A DNA stretch of 64,000 nt from Candidatus Moraniibacteriota bacterium (GCA_963743885.1 CAVURJ010000001.1:140949-204948); one strand, 5' to 3'. Positions 10,404 to 52,197 are shown, counted from the first letter of the stretch. Translations and numbers: made by a program. The notes: a model not told the origin generated them from the sequence alone.

Positions 10404-10446
10404 CCCGGCCCGCCCGCAACGCTTCGCGTAGCGATGCGGGCGGGGC
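10404..10446. repeat. GC-rich palindromic element copy A (CCCGCCCG-loop-GCGGGCGGG family)
   Basis: cccgcccgcaacgcttcgcgtagcgatgcgggcggg; homologous copies at 15398, 18216, 33190, 35541, 52163. Confidence 0.7.
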
Positions 10447-10636
10447 TGTCTCACATGTAGACAATTGGGGATTACTATCTTTTGTCCTCAATCATGGGGA
10501 TGGGCGGGCCTTCGGGTTCCCTAGTCAAGATCGGGTAGGGTGGTTCCGGCTGCGCTACACCTCGACACCATTCCTTTTCTCGGGCTCCTATGTCTGGGAT
10601 TTGTCTACAGCTGAGACAGTGACATAAGCGAACAAA

Positions 10637-10672
10637 AAGAGGCCCATCCGCCAGCCGGCGGAGGGCCTCTTT
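10637..10672. terminator. Bidirectional rho-independent terminator
   Basis: agaggccc-[ccgccagccggcgg]-gggcctct hairpin flanked by A/T runs; 3' of gspE-like gene. Confidence 0.6.
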
Positions 10673-10695
10673 TGCTTTGCCTGTGGAATGATTGG

Positions 10696-13600
10696 TCAGA
10701 GATTCGCGACGCGACGGACTTCGTCGAGTGACGTTTTGCCTTCGATGACCGAGAGTATGCCGTCCTGTGCGATGGTGATCATGCCGTTCTCGATGGCCTT
10801 CTCTTCAATCTCATGAGTGAGCGCTCCGCGGGCGATGAGGTCTTTGATGGTATTGTCGATAGGGATGGTTTCCGAAAGGACGAGCTGCCCCGCATGACCG
10901 GTTCCATTGCAATTCTGGCAACCGGCACCACTCCAGATTTTTAGTGCGTCCTTTGGTAGGGTATCAACGTGTTCCGGCGAGAGCGCAGAGAGGACTTTTG
11001 AGATGATGGCGTGTTCCTCATCGGTCGGTTTTCTCGGTTGTTTGCACTTCTCGCAGAGCCTACGGACGAGGCGCTGTGCGATGAGGAGACCACCGGCATT
11101 AGCGATATCATCACCGGAGATGCCCATTTTCATGAGGCGCGATATGGCTCCGGCAGCAGAATTGGCATGGAGTGTTGAGAGTACGAGGTGGCCGGTATTG
11201 GCGGCTTGTATAGCGATGCGCGCTGTATCATCGTCGCGGATTTCGCCTACCATGAGAACATCTGGGTTCTGACGGAGCAAGGCACTGAGAGCGGTTGAGA
11301 AAGTGTATCCTTCAGCTTCGTTTATCTGGGTCTGTAGAATGCCAGGCATCTGGTATTCGATCGGATCTTCGACGGTGATGATTTTCGTCTCTGGTTTATT
11401 AAGGAGTGCAAGCGTTCCGTAGAGCGTCGTTGTCTTTCCGGATCCTGTCGGTCCGGTATTGAGAATGATGCCGTTTGGAGCATGAATTGCGGAAAGAATC
11501 CTTTTCAAGTTTTGCGATCGGAGAGCGAGGTTTTCAAGGTTGAGCGCGGCATTTGATTGGTTCAGAAGGCGTATAACTGCGGTTTCGCCAAAACCTCCGA
11601 GTATGAGAGAAAGTCGAACATTGATTATTTTGTCCGGCGCGCCATCGGGTTGTTCAATAGCAATAGAGAAACGTTTATCGGTAATTCCGGCGCGCTCGCT
11701 TGTCTTGAGGCCCACTAGGTTCTTGATGTCATTGATAAAGCTCGGATATTCGTTGAGCGGGAAGCGTGCGATCGTTTGAAGCATGCCGTCTATGCGGAGC
11801 CTAATGGAAAAATCTTTGTCGGAGGGTTCGATATGGATGTCGCCAGCATGCATATGTATTGCCGCAGCGAAAACGATCTGTAATCTCGTTTTGGATTCTG
11901 AGTGCAAAACGTATTCCTCGAATACCTGGAAAGAAGAGAGGTGTCGCGCTGTTTCGGTGACGATATCGGATGGAATGAACGATGAGCGCGAAAGGTCGCT
12001 CGACATCAAATCGAGGTAGATATTTTTCAGCATATCAGATTGGTCGGTGACGCGGGAAATCTCCTCAAGTGTTGTGATTCCATCGAGCATCTTTAAGATG
12101 CCATCCTGAGTCATGGTGACCATGCCGTTTTCGAGAGCTGCACGAAAGAGCTCCTGTTCAGTTCCGAGATTTTCGATAATCTTGATGATATCCGGCGTCA
12201 TGGCGAAGACCTCAAAAATTCCGATGCGGCCTTTGTATCCCGTAAAATGACAATTTGGGCATCCAGATGCTTTCCAGAGAACCCGCACCTCTTTCGGAAG
12301 CACGATTTTTGCTTTGGGGGATATGATAGTGATGAGGCGGATGATGGAGTCGATAGTTCCTTTCGCTGGTTCGTATGATTGTTTGCATTGGTCGCAGAGT
12401 TTGCGGACGAGCCGTTGCGCGATAAGGACGTTGACTGAGGCAGCAAGGACCGAGGGCTTCACTCCGAGTTCGATAAATCTTGGGATGGCGCCAGGGGCAC
12501 TGTTGGCGTGGAGCGTCGACATGACGAGGTGGCCGGTGAGTGCGGCGTTGACAGCAATATCAGCCGTTTCGTCGTCTCGAATCTCGCCGATAAGAATGAT
12601 GTCCGGGTCTTGACGGACGATAGCTCGGAGCGCCGAAGCGAAAGTATAGGATTTGTCTTTTGAGACTTCAGTCTGTACGATGCCAGGAAGCGAATATTCG
12701 ATCGGATCTTCGACGGTGATGATCTTAGCCCCTGGCTGGTTGATGATATTGAGGAGAGTGTAGAGCGTCGTTGTCTTTCCGGATCCTGTCGGCCCGGTAT
12801 TGAGCACCATGCCGTTCGGCTTTTCAATCTGGCGGAGCACTTCCTCGCGGGCGAGCCCTCGCAGCCCGAGCGAGTCGATATCGACGATGACATCTTCGCC
12901 TGATAGAAGGCGCATATTTATGCTTTCCCCGTATTTTCCAGGGATGATGTTGACGCGGACATCGATGCGTTTTTGGTCGAGCGTGATGAAAAAGTGACCG
13001 TCTTGGGCTTTATCGCGGATATTGAGCCGCATTTTTCCGATCATTTTGATGCGGGAGATGAGTTGCCGGTAGACCGCCTGAGAAAGCGACCCGATATTTT
13101 GGAGTACGCCATCGACGCGATAACGGAGGCGTACAGTATCTTCTTCTGGCTCGAGGTGGATATCGCTTGCGTCGAGCTTTCTGGCGCCAGCAAGAACGAC
13201 CTCGATGGAATGCGAAGTGGTTGATGGCCGATTTTCTTTCAGGCTGATGAGTTCACCGAAATCCTTTTCGAATTGCTCAAGGTCATTGCCTTTGAGCGAG
13301 ACGCGGACGAGGTCAAGGCTATCGCTGACCGATTGTTTTGTATAAGCTTCCCAGGCGCTTTCAATGGATGGTTTTGAGACGACGTAGAGCTCTCGGCCGA
13401 ATCCTTTTTTCTCTACGAACGTATCGATATAGGAAAGCGCTTCTTGGTTTGCTGGGTCGGTAATCGCAAAGAGTGCCTGTAAGCCTTTCTTTTGGAAAAG
13501 GATAAAGCCGAGGCGTCGAGCGTCCGCCTCCGGGATAAGCAGGGCCTCTTCCGGTTCGACAGGAAAAAGACTGAGGTCTATATATGGGAGGCCGCATGAG

Positions 13601-13719
13601 GCGGCGAAACGAGCGGTAGTTTCCTCAATGGAGACCTCCTTCATCTTCTGTAGGAGCTCCTCTGTCTTCCCTGTTTTTTCATCAGGAAGCTGGCTGCTCT
13701 GATGGGTGACTTTCACCAT
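10696..13719 (-). CDS. Tandem-duplicated GspE/PilB-family secretion ATPase (two complete ATPase cores in one 1007-aa polypeptide)
   Basis: Two Walker A boxes (LNTGPTGSGKTTTLYTL and ILNTGPTGSGKTTTLYGTL), two tetracysteine motifs (CDQCKQ...GCPNCHFTG; CEKCKQ...GCQNCNGTG), N-terminal GSPII_E_N-like domain. Confidence 0.8.
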   Translation of the reverse strand: MVKVTHQSSQLPDEKTGKTEELLQKMKEVSIEETTARFAASCGLPYIDLSLFPVEPEEALLIPEADARRLGFILFQKKGLQALFAITDPANQEALSYIDTFVEKKGFGRELYVVSKPSIESAWEAYTKQSVSDSLDLVRVSLKGNDLEQFEKDFGELISLKENRPSTTSHSIEVVLAGARKLDASDIHLEPEEDTVRLRYRVDGVLQNIGSLSQAVYRQLISRIKMIGKMRLNIRDKAQDGHFFITLDQKRIDVRVNIIPGKYGESINMRLLSGEDVIVDIDSLGLRGLAREEVLRQIEKPNGMVLNTGPTGSGKTTTLYTLLNIINQPGAKIITVEDPIEYSLPGIVQTEVSKDKSYTFASALRAIVRQDPDIILIGEIRDDETADIAVNAALTGHLVMSTLHANSAPGAIPRFIELGVKPSVLAASVNVLIAQRLVRKLCDQCKQSYEPAKGTIDSIIRLITIISPKAKIVLPKEVRVLWKASGCPNCHFTGYKGRIGIFEVFAMTPDIIKIIENLGTEQELFRAALENGMVTMTQDGILKMLDGITTLEEISRVTDQSDMLKNIYLDLMSSDLSRSSFIPSDIVTETARHLSSFQVFEEYVLHSESKTRLQIVFAAAIHMHAGDIHIEPSDKDFSIRLRIDGMLQTIARFPLNEYPSFINDIKNLVGLKTSERAGITDKRFSIAIEQPDGAPDKIINVRLSLILGGFGETAVIRLLNQSNAALNLENLALRSQNLKRILSAIHAPNGIILNTGPTGSGKTTTLYGTLALLNKPETKIITVEDPIEYQMPGILQTQINEAEGYTFSTALSALLRQNPDVLMVGEIRDDDTARIAIQAANTGHLVLSTLHANSAAGAISRLMKMGISGDDIANAGGLLIAQRLVRRLCEKCKQPRKPTDEEHAIISKVLSALSPEHVDTLPKDALKIWSGAGCQNCNGTGHAGQLVLSETIPIDNTIKDLIARGALTHEIEEKAIENGMITIAQDGILSVIEGKTSLDEVRRVANL

Positions 13720-13785
13720 AGGTATTTGTGTTTCTTTCTTTTCTACACCTGGTATTGTACCTCAAATGCGCGCTCTTGGGAAAAC

Positions 13786-13815
13786 AGAAATCCCGCACCA
13801 TGTGGAGGTGCGGGA
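13786..13815 (-). terminator. Rho-independent terminator
   Basis: cccgcacc-atgtggag-gtgcggg hairpin with T-run on minus strand; 3' of DHH gene. Confidence 0.55.
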
Positions 13816-13847
13816 CGATAGCATCTGCTTGAGGATACGCTTCGCGA

Positions 13848-14984
13848 TCAGGCTTTCGGCTGGAGGGCGGCGATGACGATCTGCTCGGCCTCGTCGAGAC
13901 TCTGTGCGGTCTTGGTGAATCGGAAGATATCGCCTTGGATTTCGCCGTCGCCAATCTCGAGCGCAGCCTGGGAGAGGCCTTCTGGCGAAGCACTTTTGAT
14001 GATGCCAGTGATCGACCCAGGCGTTTCCGGAAAGAGAATCATGTAGTGGCTCGCGATGGAATAGTTACCGCGGATCTTTTCGAGGATGACGGGGAGGTCT
14101 TCGACACGGGCGCGTGACTGGACCAGGTCTTCGATGGATACGAGGGCCCAGATAAGCCTCAGTTGCTCATTCCAGCGGACGCCGGCCATGACGCGGCCCC
14201 AGAGCTTCAGGAGGTTGAGCGGCTGGGTCTTGTAGAGCGACCGGATAATCTTCTGCTGGTCGATACCGTGGTCCATGAGGCGTGAGGCGGTCTGGAGCGC
14301 CTTCGGTGTCGTGTTTTTCTTCTGGAAGCTTTCGGTCGCGGAGATGATGCCTGAGAGCAGGCTTTCGCCGACCTTTGTGTCGATGCGGTCCGGGAATGAT
14401 TGTTCGAGGATCTCCGCGAGGATCTCCGCGCTCGACGATGCGGTGATATCGACGAGGTTGATCTGGCCGAAGAGCTCGTTCTCTGGGTGGTTGTCGATGG
14501 TGATGACTGGCATCTCGTAGAAGATGTCCGGGTTGTTTTCGTAGACTCTGCCGAGGTGCTCCTTGTCCGGGCTGCCGATGACGATGGCGAGGTCAAATTT
14601 GAACTGCGCCGGGATAAACGAAAAGTCGCGCGGGTCGATGGAGCCGTGTTCGGGTGTGAGGTAGATGCGGAGCTCATCTCCGACCGTTTCTGACCGTACG
14701 TTGCTGATCTTGTTGTGCTCGGTATTGAAGGAGAGGACGAAGTCGCGAGCGCCGGTGATATCCGGAAGCAGCCGAGATGGCTCGCCGATGAAGGCGAGGA
14801 GCTCCTTGTCTTTCACGATGTTGTCGCCGGCAATATGAGGCTCCTGGCCGAGGCTTTCGAGCGCAAATGCAAGCGCAAATGCAGTAGCGACAGCATCGCG
14901 GCTCGGGTAGGCTGGTAGCAAAATGAGCGGCGTGCGGGATTTTTTGAGGAGTTCCTGGAATTGCTGGGCAGGAGAGAGGGACAT
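13848..14984 (-). CDS. DHH/DHHA1 family protein (NrnA-like; catalytic motifs appear partly substituted)
   Basis: 378 aa; GSPDKEHLG and ITIDNH (DNH instead of DHH) motifs. Confidence 0.5.
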   Translation of the reverse strand: MSLSPAQQFQELLKKSRTPLILLPAYPSRDAVATAFALAFALESLGQEPHIAGDNIVKDKELLAFIGEPSRLLPDITGARDFVLSFNTEHNKISNVRSETVGDELRIYLTPEHGSIDPRDFSFIPAQFKFDLAIVIGSPDKEHLGRVYENNPDIFYEMPVITIDNHPENELFGQINLVDITASSSAEILAEILEQSFPDRIDTKVGESLLSGIISATESFQKKNTTPKALQTASRLMDHGIDQQKIIRSLYKTQPLNLLKLWGRVMAGVRWNEQLRLIWALVSIEDLVQSRARVEDLPVILEKIRGNYSIASHYMILFPETPGSITGIIKSASPEGLSQAALEIGDGEIQGDIFRFTKTAQSLDEAEQIVIAALQPKA

Positions 14985-14995
14985 ACAGGGAAAAT

Positions 14996-15023
14996 ATCTA
15001 ATACCTAATATCTAATACCTAAT
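14996..15023. repeat. Tandem 14-bp direct repeat (atctaatacctaat x2) in promoter region of DHH gene
   Basis: Perfect tandem duplication directly upstream (minus strand) of start at 14984. Confidence 0.7.
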
Positions 15024-15184
15024 TTTTCGAGTCGCAAACGTGCTCAAAAAAGATGGATAGTCAAAGGTATCAGAGACTGGCAGCAGTGTCAAATATTCGG
15101 CTTTTCCTCGCCAAAAAACGGGTTTTACGCTAGGATGAATATGTTTTTCCTGTCATTCTGAGCGAAGCGAAGAATCTCGCATAT

Positions 15185-15664
15185 ATGATGCAAAATATCT
15201 TTACCACGCATTCGGCAGAGGAAACCAGGGGGCTGGCGAAGGAGCTGGCGCGGGAAATAGCGCCAGGGACGCTCCTGTGTCTCCGTGGTGATCTTGGTGC
15301 GGGCAAGACGACTTTTACACAAGGATTGCTTGAAGGCCTGGGTGCGGCGCGGCCATATGTCAGCCCAACTTTCGTCATCATGAAGCAATACGAGCTACCT
15401 GCCCGAAACACTTCGTATAGCGATGTGGGCGGGCCTGTGCCGACCGCGACTGGTATTGAGTGTATCTATCACGCCGATGCCTATCGCGTTGAAGCGAAGG
15501 ACTTCGAGGGGCTCGGATTTGCCGAGTGGTGCGCCGATCAGAGAGGCATCGTTATCCTTGAGTGGCCGGAGCGCATCGAGGCTATCCTGCCAGAAAAAAG
15601 GGTCGAGATCTCGCTCCAATCGCTTTCGGAAAATGAACGGGAAATCACGATAGAAAAAAAGTAG
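15185..15664 (+). CDS. tsaE: tRNA threonylcarbamoyladenosine biosynthesis protein TsaE, carrying an in-frame ~16-aa insertion from a GC-rich palindromic element
   Basis: LRGDLGAGKTTFTQGL P-loop, SPTFVIMKQY...YHADAYRVE; extra segment ARNTSYSDVGGPVPTATG encoded by element copy B. Confidence 0.8.
   Translation: MMQNIFTTHSAEETRGLAKELAREIAPGTLLCLRGDLGAGKTTFTQGLLEGLGAARPYVSPTFVIMKQYELPARNTSYSDVGGPVPTATGIECIYHADAYRVEAKDFEGLGFAEWCADQRGIVILEWPERIEAILPEKRVEISLQSLSENEREITIEKK
15398..15436. repeat. GC-rich palindromic element copy B, in-frame within tsaE
   Basis: cctgcccgaaacacttcgtatagcgatgtgggcgggcc, ~80% identical to copy A. Confidence 0.65.
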
Positions 15665-15690
15665 GCCGCCGAAAGGCGGTTTTTGCTTTT
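15663..15690 (+). terminator. Rho-independent terminator after tsaE
   Basis: ggccgccgaaaggcggttttt. Confidence 0.7.
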
Positions 15691-15717
15691 CTCTTGCTGC
15701 GGAAGTATACTGAAAAC

Positions 15718-18423
15718 ATGGAAAAGAAGCCGAAAATCCTGGTTTTATTGGATGGAAACGCGCTCATACATCGCGCGTATCATGCGTTGCCGCCGCTCAC
15801 GGATAAGGCGGGGCATCCGGTCAATGCGGTGTATGGGTTCGCCATGACGCTCCTCGCGGTGCTTGAGAAGTTCCATCCGGAATATATTGCGGCGTCTTTT
15901 GATCTTTCTGGCCCGACTTTCCGCGATGAGCTATACAAGGATTACAAAGCTACCCGGACGAAGGCGCCGGACGATCTATATGAGCAGATCCCGCGTGTGA
16001 AGGATGTGGTGCGCGCATTCAATATCCCAATCTATGAGAAGGAAGGGTACGAGGCGGATGATTGCGTGGGGACGATCGCACGGCAGGCAGAAAAAGAAGG
16101 TGTGCAGACGATTATCGTGACGGGGGACAATGATGCGCTTCAGTTGGTGACGCCGCTCGTCAACGTGTTTTCGATTCGCAAGGGCATCAAGGACCTCGTG
16201 CTCTATGATGAGGCGGCTGTGAGGGCGAAGTACGGCTTCAATCCGATGCAGCTCGTCGAATATAAGGGGTTGTGTGGGGATGCGTCGGACAATATCCCGG
16301 GCGTGAAGGGTATCGGCGCCAAGACAGCGACCGATCTCATCGCGGCGCACGGTACGCTCGAAGGCATCTATACGTCGCTTGAGACGCTCAAGCCAGCTGT
16401 GAAGGCCAAGCTTGAGGCGGACAAGGAGAATGCTTTCCTCTCGCGCACGCTTGGTACGATCGATACGTCGGCTCCGGTGACACTCGCGCTCACGGATGCA
16501 GTGACGCATGAGTATGACCGGGCGGCGGTCGTGGCGCTCTTTACTGAGCTTGGATTCTTCAGTTTGGTCAAAAGATTGCCGGGTGGCGAAGCCAAGAATC
16601 AAGAATCAAGAATCAAGAATCAAGAGGGGAAGAAGCCGAAAAAGACGAAAACGTTCAAGAATGCGGAAGAGCTTGAGGAGTGGCTTGAGGCGAACAAGGG
16701 GAAGGGTGTTGCGGTCTGGATCGAGAAGGGCGAGGCATCGCTCTTTGGCGGAGCTGGTATCGCAGAGGTGAGGCTTTCGATAGTGGAGGATGCGGAGGTG
16801 GTGGTTGTATGGAACAGCGAGACGAAGCCGGCTCTTAAGGGATTCTTCGAGGATGCGAAGCGCCCGAAGATTCTCTATGATTCGAAAGAAGCGATGCATC
16901 TTCTCGTGAATGAGTATATGGCGCTGGCTGGTGTGGCACGCGATGTGAAGCTCATCGCGTATCTCCTCGATGCCGGTGGTAATGTTGGTTTCGATGAACT
17001 ACTGCTCAAGGAGTTCGGTCTAGAGCATGCCGAAGCGAAGGCCGCTGCGCTCTACGCGCTCAATGCGCGGCTCGGCGAGCGGATCAAGGCAATTTCGGCG
17101 GAGCAGCCGGCGGGCCAGCCCGCAGGAGCTACGCCCACAGCGTTGCTGGCGGGAAAGTCGCTCCTTGATGTTTATGCGGATATCGAACTACCGCTCATCC
17201 CAGTGCTCTTCGAAGTAGAGGAGAATGGCATCTTTCTCAATACGGAAAAATTTAAGGTGCTGTCGGAGCAGCTCGCGGAGGAGCTCAAGACGCTCGAGCA
17301 GGATATCTATGCGTTCGCCGGTCGTGAGTTCAATATCAATTCTCCCAAGCAGCTCTCGGAGATTCTCTTTGAGGATCTTAAGATTCCGACGACGAATATC
17401 AAGAAGACGAAGACGGGTATCTCGACGGCTTCAGCTGAGCTTGCGAAGCTTGCTGAGTATCCGATCGTCGCGAAGATCGAGAGCTATCGCGAACTCTTCA
17501 AGCTGAAGACGACCTATCTTGATGCATTGCCGGCGCTCGTGGGAGCGGACGGGCGGTTGCACACGACCTTCCATCAGACGGTTGCGGCGACGGGGCGGCT
17601 CTCGTCATCTGATCCAAACTTGCAGAATATCCCCGCGAGGAACGCATGGAGCGAGCGTATCCGAGGAGCGTTCGAGGCGAAGCCTGGGTATCTCTTCGTC
17701 GGTGCGGACTATTCGCAGATCGAGCTTCGCGTCATGGCGCATCTTTCGGGAGATGAGTCGCTTGCCGAATCCTTCCGCAATGGTGAAGATGTCCATACGC
17801 GCACGGCTTCTGTGGTCTTCAAGGTGAAGCCGGAGGAGGTGACGGCCGATATGCGCCGGCAGGCCAAGGTCTTTAACTTCGGCATCATGTACGGTATGGG
17901 TAGCTTCGGCCTCGCACAGGCGGCTGGCATCAATCAGAAGACGGCAGCACAGTTTATCAAAGCATATTTCGAGAAATTCTCCGGCGTGACGCGATTTATT
18001 GAGGAGATGAAGGAAGGCGCGCGGAAGCATCACTTCGTTGAGACCGAGCTCGGACGTCGGCGCTATGTGCCGGAGATCGAGAGTGGCAATGTGCAGATAG
18101 CGCGTGCGGCCGAGCGCATGGCGATCAACATGCCGATTCAGGGATTGGCGGCTGATATCATGAAGCTCGCGATGCTCCGCGCGCAGAGAGTTGTCGATAG
18201 GTTTAATGATGCGAACCCGCCCCCGCCCGCATCCCGCTTGAAACGGGAAACGTGGCGGGCAAGGATGGTGCTCCAGGTGCATGATGAGCTCATCTTCGAA
18301 GTGAAGGCGGAGCTTGCGGAAACGTTCGCGAAGGAAGTGAAGGAAGCGATGGATGGAGCCTACCCGCTCCGCGTGCCGCTCATCGCTGCCGTCGAGATCG
18401 GGAAGAATTGGGGAGAGATCTAG
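15718..18423 (+). CDS. polA: DNA polymerase I
   Basis: N-terminus ILVLLDGNALIHRAYHA (5'-3' exo), Pol A motifs (RRQAKVFNFGIMYG, VHDELIFE); carries two in-frame repeat insertions (16594-16624 and 18216-18260). Confidence 0.9.
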   Translation: MEKKPKILVLLDGNALIHRAYHALPPLTDKAGHPVNAVYGFAMTLLAVLEKFHPEYIAASFDLSGPTFRDELYKDYKATRTKAPDDLYEQIPRVKDVVRAFNIPIYEKEGYEADDCVGTIARQAEKEGVQTIIVTGDNDALQLVTPLVNVFSIRKGIKDLVLYDEAAVRAKYGFNPMQLVEYKGLCGDASDNIPGVKGIGAKTATDLIAAHGTLEGIYTSLETLKPAVKAKLEADKENAFLSRTLGTIDTSAPVTLALTDAVTHEYDRAAVVALFTELGFFSLVKRLPGGEAKNQESRIKNQEGKKPKKTKTFKNAEELEEWLEANKGKGVAVWIEKGEASLFGGAGIAEVRLSIVEDAEVVVVWNSETKPALKGFFEDAKRPKILYDSKEAMHLLVNEYMALAGVARDVKLIAYLLDAGGNVGFDELLLKEFGLEHAEAKAAALYALNARLGERIKAISAEQPAGQPAGATPTALLAGKSLLDVYADIELPLIPVLFEVEENGIFLNTEKFKVLSEQLAEELKTLEQDIYAFAGREFNINSPKQLSEILFEDLKIPTTNIKKTKTGISTASAELAKLAEYPIVAKIESYRELFKLKTTYLDALPALVGADGRLHTTFHQTVAATGRLSSSDPNLQNIPARNAWSERIRGAFEAKPGYLFVGADYSQIELRVMAHLSGDESLAESFRNGEDVHTRTASVVFKVKPEEVTADMRRQAKVFNFGIMYGMGSFGLAQAAGINQKTAAQFIKAYFEKFSGVTRFIEEMKEGARKHHFVETELGRRRYVPEIESGNVQIARAAERMAINMPIQGLAADIMKLAMLRAQRVVDRFNDANPPPPASRLKRETWRARMVLQVHDELIFEVKAELAETFAKEVKEAMDGAYPLRVPLIAAVEIGKNWGEI
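16594..16624. repeat. (AAGAATC)4 heptanucleotide microsatellite in polA linker, encodes KNQESRIKNQE
   Basis: aagaatc x4 + aag; identical arrays at 26519 and 34554. Confidence 0.9.
18216..18260. repeat. GC-rich palindromic element copy within polA (in-frame)
   Basis: cccgcccccgcccgcatcccgcttgaaacgggaaacgtggcgggc; encodes ~NPPPPASRLKRETWRA inserted just before the VHDEL motif. Confidence 0.55.
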
Positions 18424-18488
18424 AGCGGCTTTTAGTTTGCAGCTTCGTTAGCTTTTAGGGGGGGGAATAATTCTTAGCGGATGATGGT

Positions 18489-19133: not shown

Positions 19134-19147
19134 TGATTGGTGCGGCC

Positions 19148-20364: not shown

Positions 20365-20381
20365 CAGCTATCAAAAAACAT

Positions 20382-21515: not shown

Positions 21516-21519
21516 CTTC

Positions 21520-22618: not shown

Positions 22619-22658
22619 GCTTTAGCTCATCCTGGTTTTTTGGTTGGTATTTTTGTTT

Positions 22659-22694
22659 TCCTCCTCCACTGCCAAGGGGAGGGTAGGGAGGGGT
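22659..22694. repeat. Hairpin repeat, left flank of DUF559 gene
   Basis: cctcctccactgccaaggggagggtagggagggg; inverted/near-identical partner at 23053-23087. Confidence 0.6.
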
Positions 22695-22700
22695 TATGAT

Positions 22701-23051
22701 ATGTACCGGATATTCAATAAAAAAGATACGACTGAATTCCGAAGGAAGCTTCGGAAAGAATCTACACCGCAAGAGATAATCCTCTGGTCGCGATTGCGGA
22801 GAAAAGCTCTTGGATATAAATTCCGTCGCCAGCAGGCTATAGACGGATATATCGTTGATTTTTTCTGCTCAGAAAGGAATCTCATCATAGAATTGGATGG
22901 GTGGCAGCACAAGGAATCGGTGAAGCATGATGAAAAGCGGACGGAGTATCTCAATGGTCTCGGTATGAGGGTTTTGCGTTTTTGGAATAATGAAGTCAAT
23001 GATGACTTGGAAGGGGTGGTGTTGAAGATTGAGGAGAGCCTGAAGAATTGA
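22701..23051 (+). CDS. DUF559 (Vsr-like endonuclease fold) domain protein, low-GC
   Basis: ESTPQEIILWSRLR...GYKFRRQQAIDGYIVDFFC...LIIELDGWQH; ~43% GC. Confidence 0.65.
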   Translation: MYRIFNKKDTTEFRRKLRKESTPQEIILWSRLRRKALGYKFRRQQAIDGYIVDFFCSERNLIIELDGWQHKESVKHDEKRTEYLNGLGMRVLRFWNNEVNDDLEGVVLKIEESLKN

Positions 23052-23052
23052 C

Positions 23053-23087
23053 CTCCCCTCAATCCCCTCCTTGGCAGGAGGGGAGGA
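23053..23087. repeat. Hairpin repeat, right flank of DUF559 gene
   Basis: cctcccctcaatcccctccttggcaggaggggagg. Confidence 0.6.
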
Positions 23088-33137: not shown

Positions 33138-33239
33138 TGTCATCCCGGGCTCGACCCGGGATCCAGAAATATGACTAAATAAAGAAGTCCTGGATTCCCG
33201 CCTGCGCCAGCCTCGACGTCTAGGCGGGCGGGAATGACA
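33138..33239. mobile_element. MITE-like ~100-bp element with terminal inverted repeats TGTCATCCCGG / CGGGAATGACA, containing GC-palindrome copy D
   Basis: tgtcatcccgggctcgacccgggatccagaaa ... cccgcctgcgccagcctcgacgtctaggcgggcgggaatgaca. Confidence 0.5.
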
Positions 33240-34172: not shown

Positions 34173-34262
34173 AATTATTATTCGGCTAACGGGTTTTGCG
34201 GGTTAACGAGTTCGTATTTAACCCGTTAACGCGTTAACTCGTGAACTGATCAATTTCTAATT

Positions 34263-35003: not shown

Positions 35004-35519
35004 ATGGAAAGTATAAATAATGAAGGACAGGCCGCTCCGGCTCCAGAGACACCAGCCGCTGCGCCGGTCAACAAGGAGCAGATGAAGTCGGATGTGAAGG
35101 GTATGCTTGGCCAGCTTGAGGCATGGCTCGAGGGTGTGATGGTCAAGAAAGCTCCGTTTCAGATCCCGATGGGCGGCAAGAATTTCCTGGCGATGGTCGC
35201 TCCGTATCTCGTGATCATCGGCATTGTGCTCGCCATTCCGGCGACGCTCTTCGTGCTGGTAACTTCACCGATTCTCATATTGGGTGGTGGGGGCATGGCT
35301 ATTGTGAGCTTCCTGTTTTCCATTGCTGCACTCGTCATCGAGGCAATCGCGCTTCCAGGACTCTTCAAGCGCACCCAAGCGTCGTGGCGGTTGCTCTTCT
35401 ATGCGTCTGTCGTCAGTGTCCTCGGCAGCATCGTCAGCTTTCAGATCGTCAGCGCCCTTATCGGTGCTATCGTCGGCTGGTACATCATCTTCCAGGTCAA
35501 GGAAGTGTACAAGAACTGA
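35004..35519 (+). CDS. Hypothetical membrane protein (3-4 TM)
   Basis: 171-aa ORF with hydrophobic core; TATAAT at ~34872. Confidence 0.5.
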   Translation: MESINNEGQAAPAPETPAAAPVNKEQMKSDVKGMLGQLEAWLEGVMVKKAPFQIPMGGKNFLAMVAPYLVIIGIVLAIPATLFVLVTSPILILGGGGMAIVSFLFSIAALVIEAIALPGLFKRTQASWRLLFYASVVSVLGSIVSFQIVSALIGAIVGWYIIFQVKEVYKN

Positions 35520-35531: not shown

Positions 35532-35622
35532 TGTCATCCCGGACTCCTGCCCGAATCGCTACGCGAAGCGTTGCGGGCGGGTGATCCGGGATCCAGAAAC
35601 GGGCCTTTAGCCCGTTTTTTGG
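35532..35622. repeat. TGTCATCCCGG-type element carrying GC-palindrome copy C, fused to a terminator hairpin
   Basis: tgtcatcccggactcctgcccgaatcgctacgcgaagcgttgcgggcgggtgatccgggatccagaaa + gggcctttagcccgtttttt. Confidence 0.6.
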
Positions 35623-36189: not shown

Positions 36190-36376
36190 CATCACGACTC
36201 GTCGAACGATCGGTCGGTTTCAAAGAAGATAACTCTTCTGCGAGACCGGCCGCTTTTCTTTTTCCGAAACTTCTTTTGCGGTATACTTGTATGTGTCATC
36301 CTGAGCTCGTTGGGGGATGACAAAAAAAGTTGTATCTTTTCTATACCCTATTCCCTAAACCCTAATCCCTACAAAA

Positions 36377-39975: not shown

Positions 39976-40239
39976 GTGACAGGAACATGGGGTTGAATAC
40001 CCCACGGCTTACTTGCCTCGATTCGAGTCGAAGCGGGCCCGCCTAGTTGTCGAGGCCGGCCGCGGTAAATACCCGTTATTTCGTCTTTTCGATAGCCATC
40101 GCTATATGTGTTATTGATACCCGCTTAGCGCGGTTATTTGTCTAAAATTACGCATTTGTCTGTTGAAACGCGTATTGGGCCATTTTTTATAGTATGGTAG
40201 ACTAGGAAGGCAATAAAGCCATTAATTAGACAAGTTCGT

Positions 40240-43847: not shown

Positions 43848-43860
43848 AGCTGGCTTTTTG

Positions 43861-44070: not shown

Positions 44071-44080
44071 AAGGAAACGT

Positions 44081-44164
44081 ATGAAATACATTATCATTAC
44101 TCTAGCGCTCGCGATTGTTGGGAGCATCACTGGTTATGGGTATTTCCTGTTGACCGAGTGGTAG
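44081..44164 (+). CDS. Candidate 27-aa hydrophobic peptide ORF upstream of mscL
   Basis: SD aaaaaggaaacgt; MKYIIITLALAIVGSITGYGYFLLTEW. Confidence 0.25.
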   Translation: MKYIIITLALAIVGSITGYGYFLLTEW

Positions 44165-44203
44165 AGGTGGTATACTAGAAAGCGTAAGAGTAGTTTTTAT
44201 CCT

Positions 44204-44518
44204 ATGAAAAAGCATATTACGGGGTTTTTGGAGTTTGTGAGGAAGCAGGGCGTGGTCGGCCTCGCGGTCGGCTTTCTGCTTGGTGGTGCGGTGTCAAAGG
44301 TAGTGACAGCGCTCGTGACCGATATCATCAACCCGCTCGTCGGGATGGTGCTCGGTTCGGCGGAGGGTCTCAAGGCTGCCAGCTGGACCGTCGGCGATGC
44401 GACCATCATGTGGGGTGATTTCGCGGCCGTTTTGGTTGACTTCATCATCATCGCTGCCGTGGTGTATTTCGGTGTGAAAGGTCTGGGTCTGGATAAGCTG
44501 GATAAGGCCAAAGATTAA
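44204..44518 (+). CDS. mscL: Large-conductance mechanosensitive channel MscL
   Basis: GFLEFVRKQGVVGLAVGFLLGGA...IINPLVG. Confidence 0.9.
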   Translation: MKKHITGFLEFVRKQGVVGLAVGFLLGGAVSKVVTALVTDIINPLVGMVLGSAEGLKAASWTVGDATIMWGDFAAVLVDFIIIAAVVYFGVKGLGLDKLDKAKD

Positions 44519-44577
44519 GGGGAAGGATAAGTGATGTAGGATAAGAGATAAAAGATAGGGGACTGAAGCGATAGGAG

Positions 44578-44612
44578 AGAGCCCCGCACTTTCAGAAAGT
44601 GCGGGGTTTTGA
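44578..44612 (+). terminator. Rho-independent terminator after mscL
   Basis: agccccgcacttt-cag-aaagtgcggggtttt. Confidence 0.75.
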
Positions 44613-44661
44613 TTGTCTGTCTTCGGCGGGGTATACTATGGAGGTCTCATCTGTTAATGAT

Positions 44662-45810: not shown

Positions 45811-45882
45811 CATATCGTAAGTTGAAGCATAGTCGCAAGTACAGATCGTGTGATATAATCTGAGTATTGTTAACGCGATCGT

Positions 45883-47064: not shown

Positions 47065-48739
47065 CACCGAAGAAGAAAAGAAGGCGCTGGACGGAGCAGC
47101 TGCTCGTCCGGCCGCAGCGGATATCGATCGGCTCAAGGAGCAGAATCGATTCCTTGAGGATGCTCGCCAGGCAATCGGCAATATTCTTGAGGATATCGCC
47201 GAATCCGAGGCAAATCTCCGCAAGCAGACGGAAGAACTTAAGAAATTCCAGGAAATTGCTGATTCCAGCTTCGACCAGATCATCATTACGGATCCAGATG
47301 CGGTTATTCTCTATGCCAATCATGCGACAGAAATATTGACTGGTTATTCGAAGGAAGAGCTTGTTGGGAAGAAGCCGTCTATTTGGGGCGGAAAGATGCC
47401 GCAAGAGGTGTATCAGAAGCTTTGGAAGACGATCAAGGAGGAGAAACTGCCGTACGCGGGAGAATTCACGAATCAACGCAAGAATGGTGAGAAGTACCTG
47501 GCGAGCACGCGTATCTCTCCGCTTTTGGATAAGAATGGCGATGTGAAGTTTTTCGTGGCGGTGCAGCGCGATATCACTGAGGAGCGCAAGTCGCAGGCGA
47601 GAATTGTCAGGCACGCTGCAGAGCTCGAAAGCGCCAATGCTAGGATTGAGGCTGAGAAGGAACGTGCTGAGAGTATCCTTGGCTTCCTCAAATCGATTGG
47701 CGAGGGCGTCTTCGCGACTGATCTTGAAGGCAAGGTCATATTCATGAACGAGGCGGCGGAGCTTCTGACGGGCACGACGTTCGCCGAGGCGGAGCACAAG
47801 CTTTCCAAGGAAGTATTTCGTTTCGTTGAGGAGACCGGGGCGGAAGGTCACCCGTTCTATTTGGTCGACAACGTCCTCGGCAAGCGCCGAGCGAAGAACC
47901 TCTCGAGCAAGGTATTCATCATCCGTGGTGAGAAGAAGATTCCGGTTTCTGGTACGTGCTCTCTCATCCGTGATGCGCAGGATCAGATCATTGGTGCGAT
48001 TGCCGTCTTCCAGGATATCACCAAGAAGCATGAGCTTGATCAGATGAAGGACAGCTTCCTTTCGGTGGCGGCGCATCAGCTGCGGACACCGCTCGGCAGC
48101 ATGCGCTGGAGCATGGAACTCCTGCTCAATGGCGATCTCGGGGAGCTGCCGCCGGATGCCAAGGAAGCCGTGACGCAGCTGTATGACAACAGCCAGCGCA
48201 TGGTGATGCTCGTGAATGACCTCTTGGATGTGTCGCGCATCGATCAGAACAAGGGCAAGGAGGAGAAAAAGACAGTCGATGTCATCTCAGTCATCCGGGA
48301 TGCTGTGGCATCACTTGCAGCCGAGGCAGAGAAACGGTCGGTCACAGTACATCTTTCCGTACCGGAGGCATCTGTTCCGGGAATCATGGCTCCGCCCAAG
48401 CGGCTCTATGAGGCCTTCGAGAATCTTATCTCGAACGGTATCAAGTACAACCGGAAGGATGGCCGGTTGGATATCGCTGTCACGCAGGATGATAAGGGCA
48501 TCGAAGTGATGATCAAGGATACTGGCATCGGTATCCCGAAGGACGACCAGTCAAAGATTTTTTCGAAGTTCTTCCGCGCCTCGAACGCCGTCCTCAAGGA
48601 GACGGAAGGTAGCGGATTGGGGCTTTCGGTGGTAAAATCCTATCTGGAAGAGGCGGATGCACGTATCTTTTTTGAGAGCGTCGAAGAAGTCGGGACGACA
48701 TTCATGATTCGGTTCCCGTTCAATCCGCTGGATACCTAA
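47057..48739 (+). CDS. Histidine kinase cytoplasmic part: coiled coil-PAS-PAS-HisKA-HATPase_c
   Basis: DSFLSVAAHQLRTPL (H-box), DTGIGIP / GSGLGLSVV (G-boxes); start overlaps upstream stop (ATGAATAG). Confidence 0.8.
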   Translation: MNSTEEEKKALDGAAARPAAADIDRLKEQNRFLEDARQAIGNILEDIAESEANLRKQTEELKKFQEIADSSFDQIIITDPDAVILYANHATEILTGYSKEELVGKKPSIWGGKMPQEVYQKLWKTIKEEKLPYAGEFTNQRKNGEKYLASTRISPLLDKNGDVKFFVAVQRDITEERKSQARIVRHAAELESANARIEAEKERAESILGFLKSIGEGVFATDLEGKVIFMNEAAELLTGTTFAEAEHKLSKEVFRFVEETGAEGHPFYLVDNVLGKRRAKNLSSKVFIIRGEKKIPVSGTCSLIRDAQDQIIGAIAVFQDITKKHELDQMKDSFLSVAAHQLRTPLGSMRWSMELLLNGDLGELPPDAKEAVTQLYDNSQRMVMLVNDLLDVSRIDQNKGKEEKKTVDVISVIRDAVASLAAEAEKRSVTVHLSVPEASVPGIMAPPKRLYEAFENLISNGIKYNRKDGRLDIAVTQDDKGIEVMIKDTGIGIPKDDQSKIFSKFFRASNAVLKETEGSGLGLSVVKSYLEEADARIFFESVEEVGTTFMIRFPFNPLDT

Positions 48740-48781
48740 TATATTTCTTCTCGAGGTGATTATCTTTTAATACATAAGACT

Positions 48782-49159
48782 ATGAGCCAGGAAAAATTTG
48801 TTCTCGTCGTCGAAGACGATCCGTTCTATTCCAAGATTTATAAGACGAAGCTTGCGAAGGAGAATATCCATGCCGAGATCGTGAGCAATGGCAATGAGGC
48901 CATCAAGCTGTCGCGTGAGAAGCAGCCGGCGCTCGTGTTGCTCGATCTCATCATGCCGGGCAAGGACGGTTTCGAGACACTGGCCGAGCTCAAGGCTGAC
49001 CCGGTGCTCAAGAACATCCCGGTCATTATCCTCTCCAACCTGAGCCAGGAGGAGGATATCAAGAAGGTCATGGACCTCGGAGCTGCCGAGTATCTCATCA
49101 AGGCCAACGTCCCGATCAGCCAGGTCGTCGAGAAGGTGAAGAACGCTCTCGGAGCCTAG
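48782..49159 (+). CDS. Stand-alone response regulator receiver (CheY-like)
   Basis: VLVVEDDPF...LLDLIMPGKDGFE...KA; 125 aa. Confidence 0.85.
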   Translation: MSQEKFVLVVEDDPFYSKIYKTKLAKENIHAEIVSNGNEAIKLSREKQPALVLLDLIMPGKDGFETLAELKADPVLKNIPVIILSNLSQEEDIKKVMDLGAAEYLIKANVPISQVVEKVKNALGA

Positions 49160-49229
49160 CCTATTTCACCTAGGCGGTGATTTTAACGGTTATTTGGGCG
49201 CCCGGACGTCTTTTTTGCATAATTCCAGC

Positions 49230-50942
49230 ATGTATATCAGGGATATGGAGGATGTCCTCGGACATGATGAACTCAAGGCGCTCCTGCTTGATGCAGGGCT
49301 CGTAGAGGAGAAGGACCTCGAGATGGCCGAGGAGCATTTCCGCACGAGCGGTGGGACGTTCGCGCAGGCTATTCTTTGGTATAGTCTCGTCTCGGATGAA
49401 GAGCTCGGCCGCCTTATGGCGGATGCGCTTGGTGTGCCGTTCGCCGATCTTTCGCAGAAGTCGATATCGGACGAGGTGCTTCGTATTGTTCCTGAGGCGA
49501 TCGCGAAGCATCGCCATGTGATCGCCTTTTCCGTCGATAGTGATGGTCTTCATGTGGCCATGGCTGATCCTCGCGACCTTGAGATGCGAGGGTTCCTCGA
49601 GAAGAAATCAGGGATGCCTGTCATCGTCTCGTACGCATCCGAACGCGGATTGGAGAATGCGCTTTCGCTCTATCAAAAGGGAGTGACCCAGGCGTTCGAT
49701 GATCTCATCGCTTCCGATCTCGAGGCGGCCGGCAAAGCTGGCAAGGAGACTGATCCTCCGATCATCCGCATCGTCGATACGCTCATCGCCTATGCGTACC
49801 AGAATCGTGCATCCGATATCCATCTCGAGCCGCGCGAGCGCGATATGCTGGTGCGTTTCCGCATCGACGGCATGCTCGTCGATATTGTGAAGCTGCCGCC
49901 GGAGCTCCATCCACAGATCCTTTCGCGCATCAAGGTGCTCGGTGGGTTGCGCACCGATGAGCATAAGGTGCCGCAGGACGGCAAGGTAGAATTTCCGATT
50001 GAAGGCCGCGAGCATCTCGATGTCCGCGTCTCCATCATCCCGACGACCGAAGGGGAAAAGGCAGTGCTCCGGTTGCTGTCCGACCGATCGCGTCAGTTCT
50101 CGCTCGCCAATCTTGGTTTTTCCCAGGATACGCTCGAGATACTCAAGACGGCCTACCGCAAGCCGTATGGCATGGTGCTGGTCACTGGTCCGACCGGCTG
50201 CGGCAAGACGACGACGCTGTATTCCGTGCTCAAGCTACTCAACCGCCGCGATGTGAATATCGTGACGATCGAGGATCCGGTGGAGTACGACATGGAAGGC
50301 GTGAGCCAGATCCAGGTCAACCCGGAGGTGAATCTTACGTTCGCTACGGGTCTCCGGAGTATCCTGCGCCAGGACCCGAATATTATTCTGGTCGGCGAGA
50401 TCCGCGACAAGGAGACTGCCGGCATCGCCGTGAATCTCGCGATGACGGGCCATCTCGTCCTCTCGACGCTCCATACGAACGACGCCGCGACGTCCATCCC
50501 GCGCCTGATCGATATGGGCATCGAGCCGTTCCTTATCGCATCGACCGTCAATATCATCATCGCACAGCGACTTGTGCGCAAGATTCATGAGCCGTGCCGC
50601 GTGAGCGAGGAGGCTGACAGTGAGGAGATCCGGAAGCGGATCGGTGACGAATCGTTCAGGGCGATCTTCGGCTCGGATTGCCAGAGCAAGACGGTGCGCG
50701 TCTATCGTGGTAAGGGTTGTGACGCCTGTCATGGTACTGGTTATGAGGGTCGCTCCGGCATCTTTGAGGCGCTCGTACTCGATGATGCTTTGCGTGAAGC
50801 GGTAGCGGATTCCAAGGATGCTGGCATTATCCGCGACCTCGCGGTGCGCGCCGGGATGCTGACGATGTTCGAAGATGGCTTGCTCAAGGCATTCCAGGGT
50901 CTGACGACGCTCGATGAAGTCATGCGCGCCACTAAAGAGTAA
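49230..50942 (+). CDS. pilB: Type IV pilus assembly ATPase PilB (GspE family)
   Basis: GSPII_E_N-like N-terminus, LVTGPTGCGKTTTLYSVL Walker A, CRVSEE...GCDACHGTG tetracysteine; start could be 49194. Confidence 0.85.
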   Translation: MYIRDMEDVLGHDELKALLLDAGLVEEKDLEMAEEHFRTSGGTFAQAILWYSLVSDEELGRLMADALGVPFADLSQKSISDEVLRIVPEAIAKHRHVIAFSVDSDGLHVAMADPRDLEMRGFLEKKSGMPVIVSYASERGLENALSLYQKGVTQAFDDLIASDLEAAGKAGKETDPPIIRIVDTLIAYAYQNRASDIHLEPRERDMLVRFRIDGMLVDIVKLPPELHPQILSRIKVLGGLRTDEHKVPQDGKVEFPIEGREHLDVRVSIIPTTEGEKAVLRLLSDRSRQFSLANLGFSQDTLEILKTAYRKPYGMVLVTGPTGCGKTTTLYSVLKLLNRRDVNIVTIEDPVEYDMEGVSQIQVNPEVNLTFATGLRSILRQDPNIILVGEIRDKETAGIAVNLAMTGHLVLSTLHTNDAATSIPRLIDMGIEPFLIASTVNIIIAQRLVRKIHEPCRVSEEADSEEIRKRIGDESFRAIFGSDCQSKTVRVYRGKGCDACHGTGYEGRSGIFEALVLDDALREAVADSKDAGIIRDLAVRAGMLTMFEDGLLKAFQGLTTLDEVMRATKE

Positions 50943-51066
50943 TTTCCAATGATCAATTCGCAATTTACATTGAATTTCCAATGAGACAATGATCAATTTT
51001 TGAAAATCACAACATTGGAATTTGAAAATTGATTGAAAATTGGAAATTGAAAATTTCTTAAAATAT
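50943..51066. repeat. AT-rich direct-repeat region (ttccaatga / caatttt / tgaaaat units) between pilB and pilC
   Basis: tttccaatgatcaattcgcaatttacattgaatttccaatgagacaatgatcaatttttgaaaatc...gaaaattgattgaaaattggaaattgaaaatttc. Confidence 0.55.
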
Positions 51067-52119
51067 ATGTTCTCTTCCGTATCTCATATCGACAAGCTGC
51101 TCTTCACCCGCGAGCTCTCGGTCATGCTCCGAAGCGGCGTGCCGATCGGCGAGGCGCTCGCGTCATTTTCTTCGCAGGCGAAGCGCGGACCGATGAAGCG
51201 ACTCGTCCTCTCGCTCCTCTCTGACATCGAGAACGGACAGCTTTTTTCAGCTGCGCTCACCAAATTTCCGAAGGCGTTCGATGCGCTTTATATCAACCTC
51301 GTGCGTATCGGCGAGACATCCGGGACATTACCAGAAAATCTCGCTTTCCTCTCGCGCGAGATGGATAGCTCGTACGCATTTCGGAGGAAGATCCAGGGCA
51401 TCATTCTGTATCCGGCGCTCGTCCTTTCGATGGCGCTCGTCCTTGGTGCTGCTATCAGCATCTTCATCCTGCCGAGGCTCATTCGGCTCTTTGATTCGTT
51501 CGATATTGTGCTGCCGCTCTCGACGCGCATCCTGCTTTCCATCGCATCCGTCATGGATCGGTACGGCATCATCGTTTTCGCGCTGCTTTTTGCTGCCATC
51601 ATGCTTTGGCGCATCATCATCGCACTGCCGGCCGTGAAGCCATTCTGGCATCGGCTGCTCCTGTCACTCCCTGTATTCGGTAGTTTTTCCCGCGATGTCG
51701 CGCTCGCGCATTTCTGTCGCGATATGGGGGTGATGCTCCGGAGCGGCTTGCCGCTTTTCGAAGCGCTTACTACCGAGTCGGCAGCCATGGAGAATAGGGC
51801 GTTCGCCCGTCTCGCTCAGTCGCTTGCACTCGCTGTCTCACAGGGGCGTTCGCTCGCTCTAGAGCTTGTGCGTCCTCAGTATGCTGTCATTCCGCCAATC
51901 GTCGTCCGGATGATCACGGCCGGTGAGAAGACGGGGCGTCTCGCAGAGACATTTGCCTATCTCGAGGAATTTTATGAGGCAGAGACTGATCGCCGCATCA
52001 AGGGGATGACAGTGATCTTCGAGCCGCTGCTCCTGGTTGTCATTGGTCTCATCGTCGCGTTCCTCGCCACGGCTATCATGACGCCTATCTATTCCCTTAC
52101 AGGCTCCATCCACCGGTAG
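51040..52119 (+). CDS. pilC: Type IV pilus inner-membrane platform protein PilC (GspF family), N-terminally short
   Basis: Two T2SSF repeats; alternative start 51067 (MFSSVSHIDKLLF). Confidence 0.75.
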   Translation: MEIENFLKYMFSSVSHIDKLLFTRELSVMLRSGVPIGEALASFSSQAKRGPMKRLVLSLLSDIENGQLFSAALTKFPKAFDALYINLVRIGETSGTLPENLAFLSREMDSSYAFRRKIQGIILYPALVLSMALVLGAAISIFILPRLIRLFDSFDIVLPLSTRILLSIASVMDRYGIIVFALLFAAIMLWRIIIALPAVKPFWHRLLLSLPVFGSFSRDVALAHFCRDMGVMLRSGLPLFEALTTESAAMENRAFARLAQSLALAVSQGRSLALELVRPQYAVIPPIVVRMITAGEKTGRLAETFAYLEEFYEAETDRRIKGMTVIFEPLLLVVIGLIVAFLATAIMTPIYSLTGSIHR

Positions 52120-52162
52120 GACTCGGAGATTCGGCGCGCTTCTTCGTTGCAAGCTCTGGTAC

Positions 52163-52197
52163 CCCGCCCGAAGCGTACCGCTCCGGTGCGGGCGGGT
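52163..52197. repeat. GC-rich palindromic element copy E
   Basis: ccccgcccgaagcgtaccgctccggtgcgggcggg. Confidence 0.65.

Follow-up and report, generated by a model that had tools for sequence, protein, structure and literature searches.

Hairpin repeats in a Moraniibacteriota genome: a 36-nucleotide palindrome nearly invariant across phyla, TGTCAT modules and their linkage to small GIY-YIG nuclease genes

A stretch of 64 kb from a Candidatus Moraniibacteriota bacterium (GCA_963743885.1, CAVURJ010000001.1:140949-204948; hereafter the window), with 54% G+C and genes that include those for RuvB, a two-domain PilB, TsaE, DNA polymerase I (PolA) and PilC, carries four significant copies of one imperfect palindrome of 36 nucleotides (nt), CCCGCCCGCAACGCTTCGCGTAGCGATGCGGGCGGG, as found by nhmmer and repeat finding. 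The palindromes are insertions with exact boundaries, they are tolerated in frame within protein genes, they are conserved across phyla and, in other genomes, they are linked to genes for small GIY-YIG nucleases. We consider the chance slightly better than even that the window holds orphan, non-autonomous copies of two selfish hairpin families, each tied elsewhere to its own GIY-YIG subfamily, and that these nucleases mobilise the hairpins in trans. The named PolA relatives closest to the PolA of the window belong to Candidatus Moranbacteria/Moraniibacteriota (60-66% identity). An earlier note, made from the sequence alone, had listed six copies of a single family here, and the sequences that it quoted are present where it placed them or a few bases away. 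It had missed the fourth core copy (in polA), the fact that intragenic copies stand in frame, the near-identity of the 36-mer across phyla and the link to GIY-YIG genes beside tRNA and transfer-messenger RNA (tmRNA) genes.

The coordinates of the repeats are collected in Table 1. The repeats exceed chance: the arm pattern CCCGCCCG-N14-24-CGGGCGGG occurs twice in the window against 0.00 expected, the 30-nt core pattern with up to three mismatches at three sites against 0.01, and CGGGCGGG alone nine times against 3.2. Copy 3 is 94% complementary to copy 1, and the 30-nt core of copy 2 is identical to a copy in L038, a metagenome-assembled genome (MAG) of Moranbacteria. The predicted fold of the consensus in single-stranded form has -18.5 kcal/mol (z = -4.7), with a stem of 10+4 base pairs (bp) and A.A and T.T mismatches; its ends are CCC/CCT and GGG, and GTAG is confined to the central loop. 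The 36-mer amounts to 12 codons and, on direct reading of the sequence, is stop-free in five of the six frames. No T-run directly follows the palindrome at any window copy, which does not agree with an intrinsic terminator, and the copies are solitary and kilobases apart, not the regular direct repeats of a CRISPR. A search of Rfam, over the whole window at the gathering score and around copy 1 at E<=1, returned tRNA-Ser only. A sigma70-like promoter (TTGACA 10346-10351, TATCAT 10369-10374) lies on one side of copy 1, and on the other begins a candidate structured RNA with its 5' helix.

Table 1. Hairpin repeats and related features of the window (positions counted from its first nucleotide).
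Feature	Position	Strand	Context and remarks
Core palindrome, copy 1	10409-10444	+	identical to cross-phylum consensus; intergenic
Core palindrome, copy 2, AAACACTT..TATAGCGATGTGGGC variant	15398-15433	+	in-frame in tsaE (15185-15664)
Core palindrome, copy 3	35546-35581	reverse	2 mismatches to consensus; in loop of TGTCAT module
Core palindrome, copy 4, diverged, 39 nt	17115-17153	reverse	nhmmer E = 4.7e-5; in-frame in polA (15694-18423)
45-nt window-specific insertion with TGTCATTCTGAGCGAAGCGAAGAATCTC at 15151-15178	15140-15184	+	directly 5' of tsaE start codon; not in L001/L002
45-nt hairpin insertion, arms CCCGCCCGCATC / ACGTGGCGGGC as in 36-mer, other centre	18212-18260		polA, upstream of motif C (ANPPPPASRLKRETW)
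MITE-like unit, 102 nt	33138-33239	+	TGTCAT-hairpin-ATCCAGAAA, A-rich spacer, CTGGAT-hairpin-ATGACA
Right-hand hairpin of MITE-like unit, TTCCCGCCTGCG..GCGGGAA + ~21-nt insert CCAGCCTCGACGTCTAGGCGG	33195-33234		TGTCAT family
TGTCATCCCGG...CCGGGATCCAGAAA hairpin module interrupted by copy 3	35532-35599	+	composite fold -20.6 kcal/mol, z = -4.9
Minimal TGTCATCC...GGATGACA hairpin, two module ends + short loop	36294-36322	+	intergenic
Sole relative of 33206-33229 insert, 88% complementary	40037-40060	-	intergenic
Hairpin with consensus arms CCCGCCCG / CGGGCGGG, unrelated centre, 34 nt	52163-52196		intergenic, pilC-like/pilin-like genes either side

That these blocks are insertions is evident from two syntenic relatives, L001 and L002, which have about 76-83% nucleotide identity and 79% PolA identity to the window. 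Around 10 kb of synteny was aligned blind and every window-specific insertion of at least 9 nt was listed; those of 30 nt or more number four, and all four are hairpin modules. As called by the alignment, they lie at 15140-15184, 15397-15432 (36 nt, tsaE), 17116-17154 (39 nt, polA) and 18212-18256 (45 nt, polA). The three intragenic insertions add 12 codons to TsaE and 13 and 15 to PolA, the frame is kept, and the sites are empty in both relatives. Copy 2 is read in TsaE as PARNTSYSDVGG, an insert that aligns to a gap in the solved TsaE structure 5np9. Other lineages hold different palindromic inserts in the same TsaE loop and in the same PolA loop before motif C, so these loops are recurrent permissive landing sites. 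The unrelated inserts across lineages of the candidate phyla radiation (CPR) fall at TsaE residues ~72-90 and PolA residues ~838-856, with PVKSAEGG..FNGV as an example in PolA. It may be added that many PolA homologs of Moranbacteria are annotated as partial or short (about 390-430 amino acids, aa) on long contigs, which suggests a split or interrupted polA.

Tolerance in coding sequence extends well beyond the window. Among 126 fetched copies of the 36-mer, 56 lie in frames with no stop for at least 40 codons to either side and 21 in frames open to either side for at least 100; within the latter group, 13 use the PARNASRSDAGG frame and none the stop-containing frame. Such frame usage would fit an insert that is translated through, not removed. 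Intragenic hosts elsewhere include LeuRS, TsaD and large kinases, and the 36-mer remodels surface loops of the essential proteins TsaE, PolA, LeuRS and TsaD.

The distribution of the 36-mer was followed in the GTDB species representatives (one genome per species), scanned with a pattern that left 10 of the 30 core positions free. It is present, ~95-100% identical, at at least 118 loci, often within genes; 80 of these comprise ~31 from Patescibacteria of many classes, ~35 from Verrucomicrobiota and others from Kiritimatiellia, Lentisphaerae, Bdellovibrionales, Gammaproteobacteria, Terriglobales and Margulisiibacteriota, and the matches include contigs of 3.6 and 5.0 Mb. The core positions that the pattern left unconstrained are 83-100% identical across loci, and the edges are sharp, with conservation falling to background exactly 3 nt beyond the 30-nt core. 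Copies occur in both orientations, their flanks are random, and no target-site duplication accompanies them. Flank complementarity, as a sign of general insertion into hairpin loops, was tested with a negative result, and only some copies are nested in a loop. Where the sequence varies, it does so by CpG transitions; C9T and G17A occur together in 16 loci, and the pair keeps a base pair that flanks the GCGAAGC/GCTTCGC core, a very stable DNA mini-hairpin. The variant form of copy 2 does not prove a separate master copy, because its variant positions are CpG transitions and could recur independently. The searchable literature, queried also with literal DNA and peptide strings, yielded no description of the 36-mer, of the TGTCAT modules or of the GIY-YIG linkage treated below.

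A second short palindrome of 20 nt, CCTGCCTGCCGGCAGGCAGG, is common to eight of the fetched loci (L014, L017, L050, L052, L086, L102, L165 and L194) and to L004 (10207 and 5259-5280), a more distant relative of the window, and is inserted in tRNA fragments beside GIY-YIG genes in L102 and L165. A variant of it (PTRQTGLPTRQTGL) is duplicated in the TsaE loop of L004.

What accompanies the 36-mer elsewhere became apparent from the open reading frames (ORFs) around it. Clustering of the ORFs within 1.5 kb of the palindromes gave, as the top family, a GIY-YIG-domain-only protein of ~80 aa, encoded at 13 loci and separated from the palindrome by a median of 33 nt; SmpB was the second family, and no transposase family was among these neighbours. 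GIY-YIG ORFs adjacent to the repeats in other genomes match PF01541 at E = 1e-10 to 1e-19. CPR loci read smpB - GIY-YIG - palindrome - tmRNA, where the palindrome directly adjoins the 5' end of the tmRNA, and Verrucomicrobiota loci have tRNA-Val, then GIY-YIG, then a 3' tRNA fragment that is a duplicate. The 36-mer of L010 stands exactly between GGGGTCACA and GGTTCGAACC, and other loci are alike, with small junction differences. As an independent sample, 80 metagenome loci were picked by the GIY-YIG protein and not by the palindrome. Genes of subfamily A (..KTGFGRxYLKxR) have a tRNA or tmRNA within 150 nt in 26 of 38 cases and strict arm-type palindromes in 7 of 38, against 1 of 42 and 0 of 42 for the other subfamily in that sample. 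About 14 of 20 tRNA-linked loci share one design, in which a tRNA 5' fragment ending at the D-stem/loop junction is followed by a palindrome, a few tRNA bases, the ORF and an intact tRNA. The tRNA-linked loci span at least five tRNA isotypes, and their palindromes share arms and differ in their centres. GIY-YIG-A genes are chromosomal, with one viral locus against at least 590 metagenome loci. Viral contigs with the 36-mer number three and those with a GIY-YIG-A gene one, and with so few, phages are not obvious carriers.

A further arrangement was met in a Chthoniobacterales MAG (L063:4430-5000), where four tandem units of 136 nt each consist of a tRNA-Val 5' fragment and a 36-mer. Downstream of them come an intact tRNA-Val and a gene of GIY-YIG-A, and the whole resembles segmental amplification of the SegB type.

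The window also holds TGTCAT-terminated hairpin modules; the pattern TGTCATYCYGR occurs four times against 0.39 expected. The unit at 33138-33239 had been described as resembling a MITE, a miniature type of inverted-repeat transposable element, with terminal inverted repeats (TIRs), and this is borne out, although the repeats (TGTCATCCCGG / CGGGAATGACA) are imperfect. The unit has no coding capacity, and its architecture recurs in L017, L061 and L099 from other Patescibacteria. An uninterrupted TGTCATCCCGG..CCGGGATCCAGAAA hairpin lies at 33138-33169. At 35532-35599 the loop of such a hairpin contains a 36-mer, just as the nesting had been proposed, and the same nesting is found in L017 and L061; the composite begins 13 nt after the stop of ORF 35004-35519 and is followed by a GC hairpin with a T-run at ~35600-35622. 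The modular system of short hairpin repeats is a real and nested one. By inspection, no target-site duplication is visible at 33138-33239 or 36294-36322, and an ATATG at 15140-15184 is ambiguous.

These modules are linked to GIY-YIG genes of subfamily B (..KQLKxWxRxWKxxL..): TGTCATYC/GRATGACA modules lie within 150 nt in five of six distinct loci, against 0 of 77 loci of other GIY-YIG subfamilies and a background of one per 6.7 kb. GIY-YIG-B proteins found on multiple contigs represent one locus in many samples, not multiple copies. A full-length version exists in L227, which has the structure TIR-ORF-TIR, with TGTCATCCCGGACTTGATCCGGGATC, a GIY-YIG-B ORF and GATCCCGGGTCAAGCCCGGGATGACA, and with the module as in the window at 33138 and 35532. 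Since this full-length form carries the same module, the 102-nt units of the window, L017, L061 and L099 look like internal-deletion derivatives. The module type of 15140-15184 also adjoins a GIY-YIG-B gene in L217. A subfamily-B gene follows holA in L001 (L001:10820-11222), and the same site of the window holds instead a nuclease-like DUF559 (PF04480) ORF at 22701-23051 with inverted repeats on either side (22655-23086), an apparent hot spot for small selfish nuclease genes.

The six listed copies were not all of one family. Those at 10409, 15398 and 35546 are true copies, and those at 18212, 33195 and 52163 do not align to the consensus. The hairpin at 52163-52196 has the exact 8-nt arms and a centre unlike that of the 36-mer. 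The one at 18212-18260 agrees with the 36-mer over 12 nt in the left arm and ~10 nt in the right, and folds at -13.8 kcal/mol (z = -2.1), and the PolA homolog P0123 holds a related insert. The hairpin at 33195-33234 is not homologous to the 36-mer; its uninterrupted form, CTGGATTCCCGCCTGCGCGGGAATGACA, comes after the GIY-YIG-B gene in L052. All three have modest fold z-scores (-2.1 to -2.8), and their centres have no relatives in 1.1 Mb of fetched loci. The hairpins at 18212-18260 and 52163-52196 are possible superfamily variants of the 36-mer; palindromes that share arms and differ in their centres at the tRNA-linked GIY-YIG-A loci lend some support to an arm-based grouping, and hence to these two as variants.

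How could such elements have spread? Family 1 would comprise the 36-bp imperfect palindrome together with longer variants that share the CCCGCCCGC/GCGGGCGGG arms, and it would enter new sites as a precisely bounded block, facing either way and leaving no target-site duplication. It may persist in essential genes because its 12 stop-poor codons give a hydrophilic Pro/Ala/Arg/Ser/Gly loop within permissive surface loops. Family 2 would consist of TGTCAT-terminated hairpin modules that pair as inverted repeats into MITE-like units of ~100 nt, into whose loops family 1 could insert. Genes of subfamily A reside beside tRNA or tmRNA genes, where the palindrome interrupts a duplicated tRNA fragment, either in its D-loop or where variable loop and T-stem join, and those of subfamily B lie between inverted TGTCAT modules. 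We infer that the hairpins are moved in trans by the GIY-YIG nucleases, which would nick DNA where stem and loop meet. One route, which is speculation, is that a hairpin with paired ends, excised or copied, is sealed into a nick by ligation and becomes fixed when the DNA is next replicated; ligation into any nick would explain the exact boundaries, the lack of duplications and the weak choice of target. A bolder proposal is that GIY-YIG nucleases of ~80-95 aa drive a class of mobile DNA in bacteria that has not been described, by a transposition-like mechanism that might use hairpin oligonucleotides ligated into nicks, with A moving the 36-bp palindrome, which targets tRNA and tmRNA genes and spills in frame into essential proteins, and B moving the MITE-forming TGTCAT modules; this we regard as possible and doubt more than we believe. 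To our knowledge, the GIY-YIG fold is not represented among the known transposases.

Several observations count against mobilisation by GIY-YIG nucleases. With a small hidden Markov model, no GIY-YIG ORF is found in the 64 kb at E<1e-3, so that the window copies either are orphans or depend on a gene in another part of the genome, and at about 90% of the loci with a palindrome a GIY-YIG gene is lacking within 1.5 kb. Conversely, the consensus 36-mer accompanies only some of the subfamily-A genes. There is no target motif, flank complementarity or target-site duplication that would indicate a specific enzymology. The linkage itself could arise if GIY-YIG cassettes make dead tRNA fragments that merely tolerate palindromes. 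At the site of copy 1, L004, a relative of ~70% identity, has a decayed ortholog, so some copies are old fossils and not active elements. The hairpins at 18212, 33195 and 52163, moreover, cannot be tied to the 36-mer family by their sequence.

A close rival, though an unlikely one, is that the palindromes are not mobile by themselves and are scars of repair, filler left where GIY-YIG homing endonucleases cut, on target in tRNA D-loops and off target in random genes, for example through abortive copying of the terminal hairpin of a cassette during break repair. The palindrome indeed lies ~10 nt from the junction of cassette and tRNA in the disrupted tRNA fragment, at D-stem/loop junctions, much as I-TevI, a GIY-YIG enzyme, cuts at a distance from its insertion site; the absence of target-site duplications and the occurrence of both orientations agree as well. 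However, a fixed template of 36 nt would be needed at sites without homology to the donor, and most copies are far from any cassette. Selection by the host for a function of the hairpin, as an RNA stabiliser, a processing or insulator signal in the leaders of stable RNAs or a protein-binding site, is distinctly unlikely in our judgement. It would account for the extreme conservation of all 36 positions across phyla, for the copies that abut the 5' ends of tmRNA and tRNA genes, and for the places of copy 1, between a conserved promoter and a candidate structured RNA, and of copy 3, just after an ORF. It is difficult to reconcile with the same block standing in frame, in both orientations, in TsaE, PolA, LeuRS, TsaD and others, with close relatives that do without it at those sites, and with the lack of a following T-tract and of an Rfam match; besides, the L004 ortholog of copy 1 has decayed while the adjoining RNA is 100% conserved. 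Exaptation of individual copies is possible.

The earlier note had likened the repeats to repetitive extragenic palindromic (REP) sequences and bacterial interspersed mosaic elements (BIMEs) or to Rickettsia palindromic elements (RPEs). The resemblance to REPs is one of form: both are imperfect, GC-rich, multicopy palindromes of 20-40 nt with conserved mismatches, and a cognate enzyme gene flanked by repeats serves as the model of spread. Mobilisation of REP-like elements by a REP-associated tyrosine transposase (RAYT) or an HUH tyrosine transposase of the IS200/IS605 type is nevertheless a very improbable account of the 36-mer. REPs are species-specific, whereas here one sequence is common to several phyla. 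REPs are extragenic and go with an HUH Y1 enzyme; two of the four core copies and the 45-nt variant are intragenic, BIME-type pairs are lacking, the linked gene is GIY-YIG, and no Y1-transposase or RAYT-like family is among the neighbours in 121 loci (ORFs within 1.5 kb of 126 copies). REP superfamilies are reported to carry a conserved terminal GTAG or CGTC tetranucleotide (PMC3733652), a tag that the CCC/GGG ends of the 36-mer do not have. What stands of the comparison is the behaviour of RPEs, with exact in-frame insertions in TsaE and PolA, and not membership of REP/BIME. That the repeats are chance GC-rich hairpins or an artefact of assembly has a negligible probability. The hairpins at 18212, 33195 and 52163, with their low z-scores and lack of relatives, are what such a view could draw on, yet they include a clean 45-nt in-frame insertion relative to L001/L002. 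For the four core copies chance is refuted by the 2-3 occurrences observed against 0.00-0.01 expected, and an artefact would not recur in independent short- and long-read assemblies from many laboratories with reading frames always kept.

Overall, the repeat system of the window resembles RPEs and MITEs in how it operates, and it is probably linked with selfish GIY-YIG genes. RPEs are ~100-150 bp long and are not known outside Rickettsia. They are likewise palindromic and stand in frame in protein genes, where the added surface peptide is tolerated, and neither system has a demonstrated enzyme; 53 RPEs lie in genes, and one is in the tmRNA gene of R. bellii (PMC1458961). The element of the window is set apart from them by length and lineage, being 36 bp, in a CPR host, near-identical across phyla and linked to a candidate nuclease family. 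SegB of phages T4/T6 is a larger GIY-YIG enzyme with a DNA-binding domain. Its gene, too, stands beside tRNAs with duplicated or amplified tRNA segments, and this phage GIY-YIG endonuclease, co-localised with tRNA genes, causes segments of them to be amplified (PMC13096335). SegB, however, is phage-borne, whereas the genes here encode ~80 aa, are chromosomal and have a conserved palindrome in the tRNA fragment. With MITEs such as Correia/NEMIS and the QMITEs of Coxiella (PMC5896051), the 102-nt unit has in common its TIRs, its non-coding character and a longer gene-carrying relative, L227. Unlike those of MITEs, this candidate parent encodes a GIY-YIG protein and not a DDE or known transposase, there is no clear target-site duplication, and the ends are themselves hairpins. 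The GC clusters and byp elements of yeast mitochondria are likewise GC-rich palindromes, of 30-50 nt, that land in protein genes. They differ in being organellar, in targeting AT-rich DNA and, in some cases, in being bypassed in translation; here the lengths are multiples of three and the stop frame goes unused, as would suit an insert that is translated.

Should the linkage be a mechanistic one, the long-missing enzyme for RPE-like in-frame palindromic insertions would have been found, and GIY-YIG nucleases would join the enzymes that move DNA in bacteria. Regardless of mechanism, it is striking that a sequence as tiny as the 36-mer stays nearly invariant across phyla, and the larger indels that separate close CPR relatives come predominantly from the modules. 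They explain many odd low-complexity peptides and spurious small ORFs in the annotations of CPR and Verrucomicrobiota genomes, and could serve as markers at the level of strains.

Further features of the window deserve mention. Behind the promoter near copy 1, which has a 17-nt spacer, a candidate structured non-coding RNA occupies ~10446-10619 (+) within the region 10346-10670. A block of 38 nt in it (10456-10493) is 100% conserved with L004, its long terminal helix shows a compensatory change there, and a terminator-like hairpin follows at 10638-10670; a 6S-like identity can only be queried. No credible tmRNA was detected next to copy 1 by ARAGORN with relaxed thresholds. A gene on the minus strand (10696-13719) encodes a PilB-like protein of 1007 aa with two T2SSE ATPase domains, and its internal DNA repeats at 11330-11478 and 12671-12819 share 79-92% identity. 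Units of 7 nt form nine short arrays, at 14993, 16593, 23124, 26519, 27139, 27173, 34554, 34630 and 51014; five are perfect (~4.3-4.7 copies), that at 51014 is imperfect, and the CAAGAAT type occurs at three places, including the polA linker at 16593-16625. Direct and inverted repeats of the GTTAACGCGTTAAC type, common to the intergenic sites 6766-6845 and 34214-34256, make up another small repeat family.

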